Positions 9,178 through 17,886 of a stretch of 64,000 nt of DNA are shown here, in pieces. The translations under genes were made by a program, and so were the position numbers. The stretch's first letter is position 1. Every line of letters starts with the position of its first letter. This DNA is from Candidatus Latescibacterota bacterium (GTDB lineage: Bacteria; Latescibacterota; UBA2968), in assembly GCA_965198115.1 (NCBI GenBank), contig OZ240241.1, positions 7,712,001 to 7,776,000 on the forward strand, written 5' to 3'. Below the pieces are notes generated by a model, which worked only from the letters and a program-made list of their open reading frames with translations, searched no databases and had not been told where the DNA came from.

Positions 9178-9943
9178 GTTTTCGGCCCACAAGATGCAGC
9201 ATCACGCCTGTGTCTCTGAATTGCATCAGTTCGCAGGTTTCGGCTGCCACCTTCAACACGTTCTCGTAGGCTTCAGGATAGGTTTTCTCCAGATCCTGAA
9301 TCGCCGGTTTTAGTCCTGAGGCGAAAATTTGCTGATCCTCTACCCACTCAGATGCCATAGGCCCCTAATTCGGAACGATTTCATCAAATCCGCCCCAGAG
9401 CACCGGCAGAAAAAGATCGTCCAAATTTAATCGAGTTTCTCATCCCCAAGGAAGGGAGAGCTACTCGGAGGGGTCAATCAAGAGGGTTTCAGTGATCAGA
9501 ACATCAAAGCCACCGTCCCCCGCTTCTCGGGCAGCAGCAACAAGGTCGGCGCGTTGAACCGTACCGAACTCCGGGCCGATAAAGATCGCGGCGCGCTTTT
9601 CCATCTCGCTTTCCATGTAGCGGCCTTCGGCGCAAACCAGATCACCGGGCCACGGCTTGAGTGTGGTAAAGGCGATTCGTCCCTCCTTGTGAGATTGTTG
9701 AACGCCGGCGACCTCAAGGTTCTTGAGGATCATCTGTGGGAATGACTGATTGGCTTCGTAGTCTCCGGCACTTTTTTGGAGATCGCCGATCAACCCATCG
9801 TCCTCGTCGACTGCAAGCATGCGGTGAGGGCTCAGGTTTTCCACGGTGAACGGGCCAGCAACGCGAACAATCTTCTCGACATTATATACTTGACGGACCC
9901 ATAGGATTGTAGTACTTTTCCCAGTGAACAAGCCATTACACCC

Positions 9944-10093
9944 TCACTTCTGCTTCTTCTCGCCCTTCTCTGGTGGCTCGTCCTTTCGATGGGCTGGCCC
10001 CGCATCCAGCGCCTTTTTCAGTGCCTCTTTCACCGTCAGCGGGTGTAGGGTGATGGGCTTATCGTAACCGTTCTTTCTATCACGCTTCTCCAT
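9944..10093 (-). CDS. 49-aa basic passenger peptide of IS1595
   Basis: MEKRDRKNGYDKPITLHPLTVKEALKKALDAGP..; similar peptide at 23380-23529. Confidence 0.55.
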   Translation of the reverse strand: MEKRDRKNGYDKPITLHPLTVKEALKKALDAGPAHRKDEPPEKGEKKQK

Positions 10094-10118
10094 AATAACC
10101 ATGCCCGTATGAATATCC

Positions 10119-10147
10119 TTGACACTATGCCCCTAAGCGGCTATTCT
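10119..10147 (+). promoter_or_regulatory. Sigma70-type promoter for the IS1595 cargo unit
   Basis: TTGACA-17 nt-TATTCT. Confidence 0.75.
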
Positions 10148-10198
10148 CTTAATGATGCGGTAAGACCAATTTTCCCACAAATCGAAGGAGATGGACAC

Positions 10199-10615
10199 GT
10201 GACAAGTAACCTTGAATTGTATATGCAAATCCGTAAAAACCTTCTTTATGAATTGGCTCAGGTTGATCGCAAGATCTCTGAACTTTCGGGCAAGAGTATC
10301 CCGGCACTTACTCGAACACGCCGCGTCAAGAAAAGCAGACGCAAAAACCCCAACTCCGTAAGCGCCCAAGTCAAGAAAGCGCTTTCCGACATAATAGAGC
10401 CCGAGGACGGTAGACATAAACCCCCGAAGGTTATCCAGTCGGAGTTGAAGGAGATTGGAATCATCGTTGACATGAGGTACCTCCGAAGTTTGCTGTCCAT
10501 CGAGAAACGGCATCATGATCGGCTCGCGAATGATCACGAAGGATGGTTCAAGCCAGCTGAAAACGATACGGCCCCGGAGGGCGCGGAAACGCCGACCGAG
10601 GCCGTAAATTCCTGA
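10199..10615 (+). CDS. IS1595 passenger protein: coiled coil, basic linker, putative winged HTH
   Basis: GAAGGAG RBS before in-frame GTG 10199; the fold is an inference from sequence pattern. Confidence 0.65.
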   Translation: MTSNLELYMQIRKNLLYELAQVDRKISELSGKSIPALTRTRRVKKSRRKNPNSVSAQVKKALSDIIEPEDGRHKPPKVIQSELKEIGIIVDMRYLRSLLSIEKRHHDRLANDHEGWFKPAENDTAPEGAETPTEAVNS

Positions 10616-10620
10616 TGGCT

Positions 10621-10691
10621 GGGGGTGGCAGGTTGCGGGCGGAAGGCTGTGGACCCGGCGCCCGGGGATTCAAGTTCCTCCACCTCCACCA
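10621..10691 (+). ncRNA. tRNA/tmRNA tRNA-like-domain mimic, 71 nt, Ala-type acceptor stem
   Basis: GGGGGTG/CACCTCC 7-bp stem with G3.U70, ACCA end, T-arm GGGGA-TTCAAGT-TCCTC, inner helix GGGCG/CGCCC. Confidence 0.7.
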
Positions 10692-10983
10692 AAATACCCC
10701 CCACATGCGTAGCGTAAGCAAAGGAGGCTAACTAAAAGATACCGACAAAAGTCCCACAAATCCAGTGTTTATCAGCGGTTATGGATAACTACATGAAAAA
10801 TCAATAGTTACAGGGGGTGAGGTCCGCCCGATCCCGCGATTCCACCAACACTTTTCCCGGGCAACTGGCCCAAAGGGGAGGTGAGATAGGCAATGACGAC
10901 TACAACTCGTTGCCGTGGACCACCAGTGATGTAATCGTTTCTTCGGACCCTAATCCGTGCGGGATCGGCGGTGCCTCACCCCT

Positions 10984-11916
10984 CTACGCCGTAAGTGGCT
11001 TGTACGACAAGCGCTTTCCGCCCGACGCCTTGATCGCGTTCAGGGTTCGTGTAACATCCGTGACCGCACGATTATTCCACCTGAACGTGGCCTCATCACA
11101 ATAACGCTGAAGGTGCTCTTTGCTGACGTGGTGCCACGATCCATAGACCGCACGTTTCAGCAGCGAGAAGAGGCTTTCGGCGGTGTTGATGTGAATGTTG
11201 CCGCGTGCATATTCGCGGGCGCTATGCTTCACAAAACCGTGGCTCTCAAACTCCCGATCCAGCCCACGATAGGACTGTAGCTCGTCCGTCATGATCGACG
11301 CTGACGGATCTACGTGTTCGCGGATGTTCTCTTTCAGGGTCACTGCCGTCACGTCAGGGACCACGCGCATACGGGCGTTACCGTCTCGCTCGACCAGAGC
11401 GGCAACGGGCGTCTTTTTCGTCTTAGGCTGGCGCTGACCCTTCTCACGCAACTCCGCTCTACGTTCGTGTGACACGCGCTCACGCGGCTTACCGCCCACG
11501 TACGCCTCATCCGCCTCGATGATGCCTTGCAGCTTGATGGTTCCATCCTCGGCCATTGCGTGCCTGATACGGTGACACATAAACCACGCGCTCTTGTAGG
11601 TGATCCCCAACTCTCTGTGAATCTGATGACTGGAAATGCCCTTCTTGGACGAGCACATCCGAGCGAAGGCGTATACCCAATCTTTAAGCGCTATGGGGCT
11701 GTTCTCAAAGATGGTGCCGACGCGGATCGTGAACTTCCGACGGCAGTCGCGGCACTTGCAACGCCCCTCAGCGCCGGCCTTGCCACCCATCTTGTAACCC
11801 TTTACAGACCCGCAATGCGGACAGATCGGACCGTCAGGCCAGCGTATGGATTCGATAAGGTGTCTGGCCTCATCTTCTGATAGGCGTGCGAGTTGTGCGG
11901 GATTCTCAATATTCAT
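10984..11916 (-). CDS. IS1595 family transposase
   Basis: CPHC..CRDC zinc ribbon, EADEAYVGG, MTDE..Y, HINTAESLFSLLKR..HHVSKEHLQRYCDE..FRWNNR; inward promoter TTGACG-17-TATATT at the right IR. Confidence 0.95.
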   Translation of the reverse strand: MNIENPAQLARLSEDEARHLIESIRWPDGPICPHCGSVKGYKMGGKAGAEGRCKCRDCRRKFTIRVGTIFENSPIALKDWVYAFARMCSSKKGISSHQIHRELGITYKSAWFMCHRIRHAMAEDGTIKLQGIIEADEAYVGGKPRERVSHERRAELREKGQRQPKTKKTPVAALVERDGNARMRVVPDVTAVTLKENIREHVDPSASIMTDELQSYRGLDREFESHGFVKHSAREYARGNIHINTAESLFSLLKRAVYGSWHHVSKEHLQRYCDEATFRWNNRAVTDVTRTLNAIKASGGKRLSYKPLTA

Positions 11917-12731
11917 GGCGTCTCTCCGTTTGTATTGACACACCCTGAATATACCACATCAATGTGGGTCCGTCAAGTATATAATGTCGAATCTTCTTAT
12001 GCTCGTAAGGTTTGTCATAGAGGTATTTAAACTCAGCCTTCACGGCGATCGAGGCGTCGATCTCCTTTTGTCGGGCGATCCGGGCCTCCCACCAATCGGC
12101 ATGTAGCTTCTTTGCTCCGTCCGACCAATTGCTGTCGGTATCCCTGGGTATTTCCCACTCCATCTGAAGTTTGGAGCCAATTGAAGTTCGGATCAGGCCC
12201 CGCGCCGCGTAAAAAGCTGGCGAAACTTATGGTGTCCTCGTCTGCGGGAGTACCAGAGGATATAATCGAGCCTTGCTGGGAGCCGATCGGTTGAGCCAAG
12301 CCCAGTCGCACCCTTGGTAAACGCAATCAGTGATACAAAGTTGTCTTCGGCGTCTGAGATCCGTCGACTCTGTCCGAGACCGTTTATAGGACGTGAACAT
12401 TCATCAATTTGTTTTACTCATCGCCATTTTTGAGTGAAGGCAGACGCCTCAGAAAACCCAGTGAGCACGACGCAGCCCTCGATGGTGAGTTCGACCGTCT
12501 TCAGGCTCTCGCTCAGCCTGGACTTCCTTCACGAGGGACGAAATTTTCGGCGAAGGCAACAGCGGCGGAAGGGGGAAGGCGGAATTCGAACCTTCCTGAA
12601 AGAATGGCTCACGCAAGAGTGCGTAAGCCATAGAAGGTGGGCGATACCGGCCTTGCCGAAGCTTCAGCGAAGGCGGGGATTCGAACCAAAAGAAATGGCC
12701 TGCGAATGAACGCAAGCCATTGATCATAATA

Positions 12732-12781
12732 TGGTGGACGATACCGGATTCGAACCAGCGACTTCCTGCTTGTAAGGTAGG
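12732..12781 (-). pseudogene. 3' half of tRNA-Val(TAC), probable att-site relic
   Basis: Minus strand CCTAC-CTTACAA-GCAGG AAGTC GCTGG-TTCGAAT-CCGGT ATCGTCC ACCA; 5' half replaced by AT-rich sequence. Confidence 0.82.
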
Positions 12782-12927
12782 AATTTATAATAGTATTTAC
12801 AATGAGTTATATAAACGTAACGTCGTATGTAACCCCATTCGGAGCCAGATCTAACCGGATCACAGCGCTCCACCACGACTTTGCTGGCTGGTCTCAGCCT
12901 CAGACTGATCTTGGTCTACCCGCCCTC

Positions 12928-12980
12928 GAGTGTGTAAGATTAACCGTGTAACTGGTGATAGAATCCTATAGTGAAGAAAC
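12928..12980 (+). mobile_element. Isolated 53-bp left end of IS256 element B
   Basis: Reverse complement of 4164-4216. Confidence 0.88.
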
Positions 12981-13633
12981 CCCAACGCGCGCAGGAAAGG
13001 AAGGACGTAATGCGCGACCAACTCGTCCTCCATGGGCCGCTCCCCGAAGGCATCCGTGTCCCAATAGAGTGCCGACAGGTCATGGACCTGAGCGACGAGC
13101 TCCTGTAACTCGGGTGGCGGCGCTTTGAGTGTCGTTTCCTCCACCGGCAAGCTCGGCAAGGCACGCGCTTGCCAATCTGTGGGTGGTGATTGAACAAACC
13201 GATTCGCGTATCCGACGACATCCTCCGACTGAACACGCGAGAGTTGAGGAGGATTGGCGCCGAACACCCGTCCGCCGAAGTCATACGGTTCGGGGAGCGA
13301 GCACCAACGCACGCGCCTGCCGTGCTGTAAGGCCCACCCATTCACGTCGTCGAACTGCGGCAGGTATTGATACTCGGATGCAACCAGGCCGACCGCACGA
13401 ATGGTCCACAGGCCCGTGCGAAGCAGCAGTACGTCACCGACGCGCAGCTCGGCGGCGAACCTCCGAACAAACCCGCCTTCGGATTCCTCGTCGGACCACT
13501 CGGAACACCACGGCCCGGTATCGCCGGGACCGATCAGCGCGACGCCGTGGTTCAAGAACTGATCGGCGTAGGAACGGTCGGACGGGCCCGCAGAAACCTG
13601 CCAGATTGCGTGCTCGTTCCTCTCCATGGTCAT
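12981..13633 (-). pseudogene. Hypothetical protein downstream of DUF1156, C-terminally truncated by the IS end
   Basis: Starts a few nt after the DUF1156 stop; frame runs into the IS256-B end after PFLRALG. Confidence 0.6.
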
Positions 13634-13637
13634 GCGG

Positions 13638-16600
13638 TCACCGTGGTACCACCAACAACATGGCGTCGAGGAGACGCTTTTCCTGGCTACCGCGCGGATA
13701 CAGGGCGGACAGCGCATTGGCAAGCCGCAGAAACTCCGGACCGCGATCCTGTTCGGCGCCGATCAGCGCCCGTAGCGCGTTGGCGTGGCCGCTGGCCTGC
13801 AGAAGCATGGCTGCATGCACCCGGTCCAGCGCCGTAGCGTCAATGGCCTGAAGTTCGGCATCGCCGTCGAGGATGGTCTTCGTGCCGCGGCGACGGCTCC
13901 GTATCTTGGGCGCGGCTTCAAATTCGGGGAAGAGCGTCGCCTGCACGCTCGCGCCCGGGTCGCTCTCGATCCAATCCGCGGCGGCACCGGCACCATCTTC
14001 ACCGAACAGATCGCTGGCGCGCTCCGCTACCGGCAGCAAGCGCACTGCGCCCTTTTCCTGTCCGATAATGCGGCCGGTCCAGACATCGAGGTCGATGCCC
14101 ATGGGTTGCGCGAAGCGGCGCACGACGTCGAAGGGCAGGCTGAATCCCTTGGCGGCTATCTTGGCGACCTCTTCCTCGTCCTCCTCTTCCTTCTTGCCGT
14201 TCTCCAAGGAGGTTTCCGTGCTCTGGAGGGTCCAGAGGAACAGCGCAGTCAGGCGGGCGTCCTCCTCTAGCGCACCGGCCATGCCGTTGTGGGTCTGGGC
14301 TTCGGCGGTACCGAGGACGGTTTCGAGCGCCGCGCGGCCGACCACTTCCCAGACCTTCTCCAGATACTCGGGCAGCCCGACCTCGCGGCCCTCGGCCGTC
14401 TCGACCACGCGGTAGCGGCTGAAAATTTCGAGCGCCGGCCCGATGCAGGCGAAGACCAAGTTCCGCGCCTCGGATGCCTTCGCCCTGGAGCCGTTCCATC
14501 CAGTGACTAACGCGCCTGGGGAGTTCACGCAGGACATCCGCCCAGTCGCCGACAGGGGCGTCCTCGGCTCGCGGGCGACAGATCAGGTGAACGCTGGTGG
14601 CGAGCGCGGCAGAATCCTGCGAACGTGGACGCCCTGGTCTTTCCGTGGCAATGGGCCACGATCCGGTGATGGTCCAGCCACCCCGGACAATCCCAGAGAG
14701 CAGCGCTTCCCATCCTTCGGTGGTCTTGTGCGCGAAGACGACCGAACCAATTCCATCTTCGTGCAGCACCCGCCGACCTTCTGCGAATGCGCGAGCCATC
14801 ATCTCCTCAAACCACTTGCGATCCTTGGGCCGACCTTCGACCTGCTTGGTCTCGTCCTGCACCGCCTCGGCCGTCTTGGGCGAGAGCGGATTTCCTGGAT
14901 CGAACGGGTCACGCAACAACGGGTGGTCGGGCAGCGCGCGCTTGAGCCAGACCAGAAAGAAATCGGAAAGATCGGAGTAGGGAATGGCGTCGTAGTAAGG
15001 CGGATCCGTGAACCAGGCACCGGCGGTTTGGTCGGGAAGTGGGTGGGCAGTCGCGTCGGAATGCTGCAGTGAACCAGTACTTCCTCGTAAGTGTCCCCAA
15101 GTTTCGAGGACACTGCCTACCCAGCCAATCGAGCTTTCGAAACACCACGATGCCTTGTCAAAAGGGTTAGGGTTCGCGAATAAATAAACGGTCGATCTCA
15201 ATGTTGAGCCATTGGCCGGATCGTGTAGTTCCAGTCGCCGTGGAAATCGTGCGGAGTGAGATCGATTTGGGTCATCTGTTCATCGGTCACCTTGACCCCG
15301 TTAGGGTAGGGTCGCTTGTCGATCTCGGAGCGTACTCGGAGACCGGCTTGAGTGGTCGTTCCGGCAATGAGATTCACGGTTGCAGCCAGGCTGACCAGGG
15401 GCTTGCCTCGCCAGTTCATAGCGATGAAGGAGAACAGGCGATGTTCGATCTTGTTCCACTTACTAGTGCCAGGAGGGTAGTGGCATACGGTGATCGTCAG
15501 GCCAGTGCGATTCGCAAAGCGCTGCAGCTCCCACTTCCACAGCCGCGTCTTGGCGCCGTTGCTGCCGCCTGCGTCCGCCGTGATTAGCAGATGCGTCGAA
15601 GTGCCGTAGGCGGGCCGTCCCATGTTCTTCCACCAACTTCGGATCGCATTCACGGCGAAGCTGGCCGTGTCGTGATCGATACCGACACTTACCCAGCCTT
15701 CATCACGGCTCAGATCATACACTCCATAAGGGATCGCCTTGCCCTGAGCAGGCACTATGAAATCGTGTACCTTCACACGCTCCGGGTCTCCCTTGGGTCG
15801 CCATTCTCGGCCAGGATTCTTGAAGTCGCCGATCAACTCTTTCTTCTTGGTGTCCACCGAGATAACGGGAAGGCCCTGCTGCTGCTGCTGGCTAATCCGA
15901 TCATCGAGGTAAACGAACTGAGCGTCCCGATCCGGGTGTGCAGATCCCTCCCTTGTCTTCCGATTCGCCTGCAGCGTGTAATCGTGTTCGTGCAGGAGAT
16001 TGGCAACGATCCTGGGGCTCACCGAATGCCCCATCGCTTGCAACTCGGCGGCCAGTTTGCGAGTGCTCTTCGATGTCCATCTCAGAGGATTGTCGTCAGG
16101 CGACCCCGCAGTCGTTGGCTCGACCAGATCATTCAGGTCCTGCCACAGCGTCGGGTCCGTGTCGGCCTTCCGCTTACGACCGCCGCCTGGACGCCGGATG
16201 CGAGCCGGGTCCAAAGGTTCGTCCGACCTCAACTCCTGAATGCCACGAAAGATCCGCTCTCTGGACATTCCTGTCGCCAGAGCCACAATCGCGATCCCAC
16301 CGTGACCCAACGCTTCGGCTTCCGTGGCGGCCCTCAGACGACGCGTGCGTTCCGTCAGCACCGGAGCCAAGGCTTCATACTTCGTTCGGAGAGTTTCGAC
16401 GTCCACACTCCGAGCGTAAGATCATTACCTTGAAAAGTGCAGCACTTATTTCGTGGCAAACCCTTAGTTTCGCAGAAATCCCATTTGATGGGCAACGCCT
16501 GAAGCGTGAACGTCGCAGCGGGTGTCTCTCGATCCATCCAACGTACCAGTGACGAAAAGTCATCTGCAAATCTCGAAAGGGACAAGGCCAGGAAGGGTTG

Positions 16601-17886
16601 CAACGCTTCCGTAGAAGACTCTTCGACGAACCGCCCCAACTCCACCAACGCCACCTTCTGCCGCGCCGTGAACAGGTTACCCCACTGCAGCATGCCGTAA
16701 CGCTGCACGCGAAAGCCCAGTGTCCCAATTGGCGGCAACGGCTCATCCGGCACTGGGCAAAGCCCCTGCTTCCCGCCACGCTCCCACTCGCCGAGGATTT
16801 CGACGAGGCGCGACTGCGCTTTGCGCACCGCCTCATGGTCCGCTTCGGTGGGCAACCGATAGTGCCGCCCGATCTGTCCTGGCCGAAGCGTCACGACCGC
16901 CGTCATCCGAGCGCCGCCTGTCCGGTGGTCCTCCTCATCGAAGACAACGTCCGCCCCGCCTCTTTGCGCCGCGAGGTGCGCCCGCACTCGTTCCGGTGGC
17001 AGCACCGCGCCACAGCAAAGGCATGTCGCCTTGGCGCGGGTCACGGTTCCACCATGTACTTCCTTGTCCACCTTGGGTTCGAACACCTCGAACTCGACAT
17101 GCGGAGGCGATCCATCGGGCCGCTCGACCCGGTGCCGCAACGCCCACTTCCGTTTCGTCTTCTTGCACAGCCAGAACGAACGCATCAGTGGAATCTCGGC
17201 GCCGCAGTTGGGTGCCTCGCAGCGCACCGTGCGCGCCCAAAGATAGGCGATTGGCGTTGCACTGTCGGGGCCCTTCGGGTAGAGATCGGCCAACTCCCGT
17301 TCGGCGTGCCGCTTGATCTTGCCGCCGACCTTGCGCAGTTCTTCGGCCAGCTCTGGTCCGTGGCGCGGGATGTCCTCCAGCATCACCTTGAGGATTAGGC
17401 AGGCCACTGGGTTGAGATCGCTGGCGAACGCCTCGCAACCGAGCCGCAGTGCCTCCAGCGGGATTGAGCCCCCGCCCGCGAAAGGGTCCACGACCAGGGG
17501 CGGCTCCTCGCCGTGCGCAGCCTTGACCAGGGCGCGGCCCACGTCGAGATAGGTGGGGTTCGCAGCATTGTCCCAGTTGGCGAAGTCGGCGATGAACTTG
17601 AGTATTTTCGCCCTTAGATCCTCGTCCGTCCGACCGACCCAACGACAGGCGGCAAAAGGTCGCGCGCCTTGCCCTTGAACGCCTCAGGGCAGTGCTCGTC
17701 GCACGGGTCCGGCAACAGCAGCGCCATCAGCACCGCCCGCGACGAGGCCAAGGGCCGCCGCGCCCACCACACGTGGAGGGTCGAGGGATGCCCGTGCCGG
17801 ATCGACTTCTCCCGCACCGCGTGCTTCGAGACTTCGGCAATGGGAAAGTCCACCTCGGCGAGGCGCTTGCATTCTTTAGGGATCAT
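13638..17886 (-). pseudogene. DUF1156-family adenine DNA methyltransferase, interrupted by ISAzo13 and two frameshifts
   Basis: [16 protein letters not shown] (DUF1156), DPFAGGGSIPLEA (SAM binding), TDPPYYD (catalytic); breaks at ~17620, 15170-16463 and ~14465. Confidence 0.9.
15170..16463 (-). mobile_element. ISAzo13-family element, copy 1 (1294 bp), TSD TTA; transposase 15198-16406
   Basis: Ends GGGTTCGCGAATAAATAA / TTATTTCGTGGCAAACCC; ISVDTKKKELIG, ADAGGSNG, PPGTSKWNKIEHRLFS; excision restores ..CET-NPFD.. Confidence 0.93.

Follow-up and report, generated by a model that had tools for sequence, protein, structure and literature searches.

A compact alanine-identity tRNA-like RNA with a variable anticodon-type triplet, carried by an IS1595 transposon of a Latescibacterota genome

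We analysed a 64,000-nt stretch of DNA from a Candidatus Latescibacterota bacterium (assembly GCA_965198115.1, contig OZ240241.1, positions 7,712,001 to 7,776,000 of the forward strand; the window hereafter), in which a transposon of the IS1595 family carries a gene for a 71-nt tRNA-like RNA among its passenger genes. This RNA belongs to a family with conserved structure, constant G3·U70 and A73, a variable anticodon-type triplet, and a link to transposons. Features of the element are listed in Table 1. An earlier note, made from the letters of the window, had delimited the transposon, and its boundaries hold. The terminal inverted repeats (TIRs) are identical in 25 of 25 positions, a target-site duplication (TSD) of 8 bp is present, and the product of the ISXO2-like DDE transposase gene matches PF12762 (E 7.8e-43) and, in its zinc ribbon, PF12760 (E 6.5e-12), all characteristic of the IS1595 family. 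In silico excision joins the flanks into one 214-aa frame, which fits a clean insertion. The element is present in one copy across the 8.4-Mb genome, and the nearest relatives of its transposase share 42-54% identity. A short-read contig from public run X1, which may be the source sample, contains the element without differences, while in run X3 the flanks of the element are uncovered, which at ~ 3-fold depth is uninformative. Some ten further IS1595 transposase genes, at 28-45% identity, are found elsewhere in the genome, one of the elements being present twice, and none of these other IS1595 elements carries a member of the compact RNA family.

Table 1. Features of the IS1595 element and its cargo (window positions)
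Feature	Position	Strand	Remarks
IS1595-family transposon with passenger genes	9877..11989	-	2113 bp; TIRs, TSD, Pfam matches; single copy
Terminal inverted repeats, 25 bp	9877..9901 + 11965..11989	.	25/25 identical
Target-site duplication AATCTTCT, 8 bp	left copy 9869..9876, right copy 11990..11997	.	
52-aa basic open reading frame (ORF)	9944..10102	-	recurs in related IS1595 elements
Sigma-70-like promoter candidate TTGACA-17-TATTCT	10119..10147	+	10/12 consensus matches
138-aa ORF (ORF138)	10199..10615	+	GTG at 10199; long N-terminal helix + three-helix C-terminal domain
GC-rich hairpin in last ORF138 codons, just 5' of the RNA	10567..10606	+	fold
Compact alanine-identity tRNA-like RNA	10621..10691	+	71 nt
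Acceptor stem	10621-27/10681-87	+	G3·U70; A73 at 10688; encoded CCA
2-bp D-stem	10628-29/10635-36	+	AGGUU loop
27-nt arm	10637-10663	+	loop CU-GUG-GA 10647-10653; His anticodon 10649-51
T-arm	10664-10680	+	
Second structured element	10813..10983	+	24-bp closing helix around Shine-Dalgarno-like site + 13-codon ORF
IS1595 (ISXO2-like) DDE transposase with zinc ribbon	10984..11916	-	310 aa from ATG 11916

The RNA gene begins 5 nt after the stop codon of ORF138, as had been noted, and its sequence, acceptor stem with G3·U70, A73, encoded CCA and T-arm are as described earlier. Its loop CU-GUG-GA has the canonical 7-nt form Y32-U33-NNN-R37-N38 with G at position 37, while the canonical tRNA features U8, a 3-4-bp D-stem and a variable loop are not present. 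Folding of the RNA is not unusually stable (z -0.40; 62 of 200 shuffles fold equally well), and ARAGORN did not call it. Among Rfam models, tmRNA comes out first with 33.8 bits (E 2.9e-11), under the gathering score of 47; Rfam holds no family for the compact RNA and returned only sub-threshold tmRNA scores. The earlier argument that the gene is not a simple att relic stands, and a deletion derivative of the host ssrA or of a tRNA gene was likewise rejected: both acceptor strands are present, the host tmRNA is intact elsewhere in the genome and has 21 of 28 nt in common with the RNA at the 3' end, blastn found no match between the RNA and host ssrA, and the 3' 28 nt agree with host tRNA-Ala in 16-19 positions. 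A 29-nt match at genome position 7204692 lies inside a protein gene and is due to chance.

Homologues were found by pattern scans. Ten loci matched GGCAGG, the start of the D region, and five of them (four distinct) are built like the window RNA, and an arm-geometry scan without D-region letters recovered the same five loci and one more. A genome scan in which positions 1-7, position 70 and the loop were left free yielded 47 loci. Twenty of these combine a 7/7 acceptor stem with T-stem pairing of at least 4/5, and the remaining 27 are chance matches; G3·U70, not specified in the pattern, is present in all 20 well-paired loci. In viral contigs, a scan without acceptor letters disclosed 37 loci; pairing is good in 10 of them, which represent 7 distinct sequences, and each of the 10 has G3·U70 and A73. 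A later D-free scan (45 loci) together with a family model, R2, contributed members whose D-stems are GG/CC, GU/AC and AC/GU and whose arm bases are CGG/CCG and GAG/CUC. Members outside the training set score 50-75 bits on R2, versus 36-43 bits for tRNA-Ala and for tmRNA-like RNAs that consist only of a tRNA-like domain (TLD). The window RNA, a copy within the training set, scores 76 bits, and the least certain member is L116 (51 bits).

The final set comprises 41 distinct RNAs, the window RNA and 40 further homologues; the set excludes locus L360 of an unpublished genome. Members reside in Acidobacteria, Alpha- and Gammaproteobacteria, Verrucomicrobia, Saccharibacteria, Peribacteria, Ignavibacteria, Thermotogae and phage contigs. 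The family is rare: of 150 further genomes from the phylum, one contains a clear member (two weaker matches are tRNA-Ala), and members were counted in 2/150 (one in an unpublished genome), 2/90 and 0/150 in three other genome samples. Searching the cargo by blastn gave no match in 167 other genomes of the phylum and none in plasmids or phages, and three homologues used as queries in those collections returned partial chance matches only. At default settings, ARAGORN called one of 36 members. In the literature searched, outside of which lie most subscription papers, no description of this scaffold was found.

All 41 members share G1-C72, G2-C71, G3·U70 and A73. These three pairs and A73 are the conserved determinants of tRNA-Ala, according to the available text of PMC9976931. 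Length ranges from 70 to 73 nt, compared to 62-81 nt in TLD-only tmRNAs, and CCA is encoded in 15 of 41. The 38 aligned members have a 7/5 acceptor branch without exception and continue from the acceptor directly into the D-stem, with no base between. The D region, described previously as stemless, has to be reinterpreted, as a 2-bp stem is paired in 38/38 sequences, in four stem types with compensatory changes (G8-C and C9-G in the window copy). In the same alignment, which was fitted to the model, the D-loop measures 4-6 nt and always contains GG, and the arm is 26-29 nt long, its first three pairs abutting the T-stem so that no variable loop is left. Covariation was assessed on 28 distinct sequences in an alignment not fitted to structure, although the D motif and the arm base had been part of the search patterns. 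In this set 91% of cells are paired, and the score of 0.442 is reached by 0 of 500 shuffles and exceeds all slid controls. Homologues retain the stems and the G·U pair, and the stems covary.

The loop is found at a fixed offset, with Y32 in 38/38, U33 in 35/38 and A38 in 28/38 aligned members, while positions 35-36 have an entropy of ~ 1.95 bits. The anticodon register was chosen for each sequence, a choice that favours the letters Y-U-NNN-N-A, and is ambiguous for about four members. Read in this way, the 41 RNAs present 26 triplets with 15 meanings: Gly in nine, Ser in six, stop in four, Val, Arg, Ile and Ala in three each, His and Leu in two each, and six others once. Amber anticodons occur in L325, L340 and L361, and ochre ones are also in the family. 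Position 34 is U in 25/41 members and in 15/26 distinct triplets (uncorrected for kinship), and A in 6/41; stop-reading and A34 triplets together account for 10/41, mostly without a host tRNA to mimic. On a weakly supported tree computed without the loop positions, the nearest neighbour carries another triplet in 32 of 38 cases, and the six matching cases exceed the 0.96 expected from shuffles (p 0.0035), which suggests that the triplet is inherited but fast-changing. Two loci hold pairs of members with different triplets, UAA and CUA at L325:1998-2148, and UAC and UGU at L261:2998-3363.

Association with transposons extends throughout the family. A transposase is encoded in the fetched flanks of 19 of the 38 other loci (IS1595 in 17, IS1-like in 2), and among genome-scan members an IS1595/IS1-type transposase is nearby in 11/20, versus 0/27 chance loci. 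A strict search placed 8 of 36 members between inverted repeats with an 8-bp duplication. The proposal of a mobile tRNA mimic with alanine identity is borne out. The closest transposase relatives lack such cargo: 82 loci from 85 of them contain no family member (best score 30.5 bits), indicating that the RNA does not track transposase relatedness. Another tRNA-like gene lies within 400 nt of 10/36 members, some of these being tandem members. At 27 loci, 150 of 159 neighbouring ORFs were examined; Panacea/SocA occurs at four loci, NYN at one, TacA-like at one, and Fic and PaaX-like at a few. At L244, a member-bearing IS1595 element ends within a DRT8 reverse-transcriptase gene; as cargo this gene was rejected, because it extends past the element end and is interrupted host DNA.

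On related IS1595 elements (L123, L127, L132, L145, L146, L178/L188), Leu/Ser-like tRNAs with long variable arms have discordant anticodons such as UAU, GGA, GUC, UGG and GGG, and frequently lie close to PIN/NYN-like or other cargo genes. Elsewhere in the genome analysed here, a tRNA of ordinary cloverleaf shape combines an Ala acceptor (G3·U70, A73) with an Ile UAU anticodon (L349; G000:C1:5955046-5955121, minus strand). It is flanked by a 227-aa regulator-like ORF, which has a hairpin, and by an IS1-like transposase; judged by this arrangement, it is the same module with another scaffold. Separately, the genome has an array of 20 tRNA genes beyond the normal set at G000:C1:2870558-2872531 (minus strand), which is probably either mobile or a stress operon.

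Upstream of the RNA, the promoter proposed previously is present as a sequence, although the match alone is within chance, with 0.7 sites of this type expected in the region. A comparable site precedes the upstream ORF of L253, and is absent from seven other loci checked. The frame of ORF138 was confirmed. Its supposed DNA-binding role is plausible, if weakly supported, with ORF138 as a predicted helix-turn-helix regulator, on the basis of a structure model (predicted local distance difference test score, pLDDT, of 68) comprising a helix and a three-helix part and of feature matches to winged-helix clusters (0.87-0.88), which serve as leads only. The fold search gave no match at E<=0.001, and only weak Fur-type rows. 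A word search detected no relatives and a full scan three distant ones; a further search added no more, none was found in viral contigs, and PADLOC gave no match. Among 17 proteins, the profile of ORF138 matches the ORF upstream of the homologue L257 (E 2.5e-5). Inspected by eye, and with weak statistical support for kinship, 9 of 41 members have, ahead of them on the same strand, an ORF whose product starts with a long N-terminal helix and finishes in a helix-turn-helix-like segment. An upstream hairpin (z<-2, <=65 nt) accompanies 18/41 members compared with 1/41 control windows.

Downstream of the RNA, the structured element ending at the transposase stop is strongly folded (z -4.97; 0 of 200 shuffles as stable) and forms an inverted repeat; its Shine-Dalgarno-like site is sequestered, its 13-codon ORF is Thr-rich, no homologue was found, and there is no second copy in the genome. 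The intervening segment 10760-10812 is AT-rich with two short inverted repeats (GTTAT/ATAAC and TAACTA/TAGTTA), which could be an operator. A split tmRNA, composed of the 71-nt RNA and a tag frame in 10813-10983, was rejected, as the tag-like frame overlaps a better Shine-Dalgarno site with the 13-codon ORF, the match to the permuted-tmRNA model is weak (21 bits, E 0.14), and no homologue has a similar downstream element. The 52-aa ORF has tblastn matches in 7/85 related loci at E<=0.3 (best 4e-5). Around the transposon, in window 9461-17542, a long frame is interrupted by the insertion sequence (IS), and broken pieces of an HmaB/DUF1156-type methyltransferase are found along with several other IS nearby; by its gene content, this segment is a decaying defence island.

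The explanation that we put first, with confidence somewhat short of even, is that the 71-nt gene, one of the compact tRNA-like family found on IS1595/IS1-type transposons and phages, acts as an Ala-charged mistranslating tRNA that would insert alanine at His codons (CAC/CAU). Transcription would start from the promoter candidate at 10119 and proceed through ORF138, whose protein would be a likely repressor, and the RNA would be released by RNase P and 3' trimming. Host alanyl-tRNA synthetase would charge it regardless of anticodon, hence in any host. The 10-pair arm may replace both D-stem and anticodon stem, its 10 + 7 + 10 nt corresponding to the D-stem plus anticodon stem of a normal tRNA, so that the loop would reach the decoding site. 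As a conditional conflict cargo, the RNA might cause growth arrest or abortive infection on derepression, or rescue a codon after destruction of the host tRNA. If an RNA has to be charged in every host irrespective of its anticodon, a constant Ala identity combined with a free triplet is what would be expected. The mistranslation or suppression role is put first on the grounds of the stop-reading and A34 triplets, constant Ala identity, and the existence of compact tRNAs that translate. Among the latter, tRNA-Pyl of M. alvus functions in translation although its D-stem adjoins the acceptor without a spacer base, its D-loop has 4 nt and its anticodon stem is broken (PMC7609411, available text). 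According to the accessible part of PMC5389517, allo-tRNAs bearing G3:U70 inserted Ala in E. coli, and mismatched Ser/Leu ones killed cells. The synthetases for Ala, Leu and Ser ignore the anticodon, according to the available text of PMC11028032, which fits the Leu/Ser-like and Ala-acceptor tRNAs with discordant anticodons described above.

A wider interpretation, possible and put more tentatively, is that the family represents a minimal, hitherto unseen tRNA scaffold spread by transposons and phages, perhaps derived from a tmRNA head, which would be charged with Ala in any host and whose anticodon could be swapped by point mutation, in effect a natural, programmable RNA weapon of genetic conflict that would act by mistranslation or stop suppression and escape tRNA finders. 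For the origin, either a tmRNA head or a tRNA-Ala by loss of the D-arm is possible, as the D-region letters fit both and the tree of 70-nt sequences is poorly supported.

Several observations weigh against decoding. A purine at position 37 is usual in translating tRNAs, and C37 occurs in 17/41 members (R37 in 23/41). Pairs next to the loop are paired in 72% of the family, and in the window copy two Watson-Crick pairs beside the loop are followed by three mismatches. U8, A14-type contacts and the variable loop are missing from the family. Triplet entropy fits lack of constraint as well as diversifying selection. No toxin, antitoxin or defence gene was found in the element (9877-11989), and no one partner gene is common to the whole family. 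Furthermore, several transposon- or toxin-antitoxin-linked irregular tRNAs were charged or folded yet unused in E. coli translation (Mukai et al., PMC5389517, accessible part). Of the readings offered in the earlier note, His-to-Ala mistranslation, a side suggestion there, agrees best with the comparative data.

Among the alternatives, a decoy or antitoxin RNA survives best, while being unlikely. It assumes a charged tRNA mimic that would absorb toxins, either nucleases that cut anticodons or enzymes that modify tRNAs, and whose triplet would diversify to match their targets. Retention of the loop hallmarks while the triplet changes fast agrees with it, as do the Panacea/SocA, NYN and TacA-like neighbours (4, 1 and 1 of the 27 scanned loci), PIN/NYN-like cargo in related IS1595 elements, and C37 and weak stems, which suit a non-decoding RNA. 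The stop-reading and A34 triplets, mostly matching no host tRNA, make it less likely that one particular host tRNA is being mimicked as a decoy; moreover, a nuclease decoy has no need of invariant Ala identity, and this element encodes no nuclease.

Less likely again is a charged RNA with a non-decoding job and an unconstrained triplet, such as an RNase P/CCA processing tag for the upstream mRNA, a ligand of EF-Tu or the ribosome, or a non-ribosomal alanyl donor. The position of the RNA just past the stop codon and hairpin, the frequency of C37, and near-maximal entropy at 35-36 would be explained in this way. Such a job leaves unexplained the fixed arm length, the conserved Y32, U33 and A38, and the preference for U34 (with the reservation about kinship given above), and none of the 150 neighbouring ORFs is an aminoacyl-transferase.

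It is improbable that the window copy is just a decaying or silent passenger of a once-functional family. It is a single copy, no stabler than shuffles, with three arm mismatches, in a region full of IS insertions and broken genes. Set against this, its conserved pairs and motifs are all intact, the R2 score is high (for a sequence in the training set), the TIRs and TSD are perfect, and similar mid-arm mismatches exist in other members.

A tag-less mini-tmRNA, the lead reading of the earlier note, consists of the TLD only and would bind SmpB and block or shortcut trans-translation. Phage DS6A, mitochondria and two plastids provide known examples of tmRNAs without a coding sequence (PMC4131195, PMC11915505, available text). 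A pattern scan of viral contigs for tag-less tmRNAs gave at least 120 loci with at least 99 distinct sequences, and 55 of 99 were hand-picked as TLD-type and aligned to build a model, R1. Among the matches listed, L001-L120 make up a large TLD-only class in phage contigs (62-81 nt, NAC linker, strong covariation), the NAC linker precedes the T-stem in 64 of 83 sequences not called as tRNA by ARAGORN (the window RNA being among the 83), and 0 of 120 loci have the transposase. On R1, the window RNA scores 38 bits, within the range of phage tRNA-Ala (36-44), versus 47-65 for TLD-type sequences outside the training set (L214, L011, L211, L032 and L084 among them). It shares the Ala acceptor and T-arm with this class, and has neither NAC linker, unpaired long D-loop, nor a helix 2 of free length without an anticodon loop; the tag frame and pseudoknots of standard or permuted tmRNA are also absent. 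Thus, although tmRNA is the best Rfam match for this RNA and likewise for three homologues, the D-region AGGUU(C)GC resembles a tmRNA 5' end, and TLD-only RNAs are common in phages, the lack of the linker, the covarying D-stem, the scores on both models, the fixed arm with its anticodon-type loop and the absence of the transposase from those 120 loci make this the least likely alternative, and the 71-nt RNA is probably not a mini-tmRNA.

The family constitutes a new structural class of bacterial tRNA-like RNA that has been overlooked by annotation tools. If decoding is true, one 71-nt gene would let mobile elements alter the host code at almost any codon, with a bearing on transposon persistence, phage defence, and the minimal tRNA shape accepted by the bacterial ribosome. 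The 26 natural anticodons on one scaffold, amber and ochre included, make this directly testable, and offer a compact scaffold for genetic code engineering.

Compared with known systems, the element resembles other IS1595 transposons with passenger genes in its DDE transposase, zinc ribbon, ~ 25-bp TIRs, 8-bp TSD and variable cargo, while a compact-RNA cargo was not found in the literature searched on them. TLD-only tmRNAs (DS6A, organellar; available text of PMC4131195 and PMC11915505) are similarly small, with an Ala acceptor, T-arm, reduced D region and no tag frame, and are found on mobile DNA, but their D-loop of 10-13 nt is unpaired, a NAC linker is present, and the hairpin is free in length, in place of an anticodon-type loop at a fixed distance. 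M. alvus tRNA-Pyl and the D-armless mitochondrial tRNA-Ser(AGY) share with the family a shrunken D-arm, missing connector and long or broken anticodon stem, and serve on the ribosome nonetheless; they depend on their own synthetase or on organellar machinery and have a fixed anticodon, whereas the family combines a universal Ala determinant with a changing triplet (PMC7609411, available text). The closest parallel in expected behaviour is with allo-tRNAs and polycistronic irregular tRNAs (Mukai et al. 2017, PMC5389517, in its accessible part), in which identity and anticodon disagree, some have G3:U70 and some read stop codons, and which occur both close to genes of transposons and toxin-antitoxin systems and in clusters of odd tRNAs. 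When the supplement of that paper was searched for the D-region motif, one unrelated row came up, and the part of it inspected contains no family member. In allo-tRNAs the acceptor branch is 8/4 or 9/3 and the variable arm is long, in contrast to the 7/5 branch, 70-73 nt, 2-bp D-stem, 10-pair arm and missing variable loop of the family. Judged on sequence, the family would act like the allo-tRNA group from outside its structural definition, and it lacks the three TLD-only tmRNA features that were tested.

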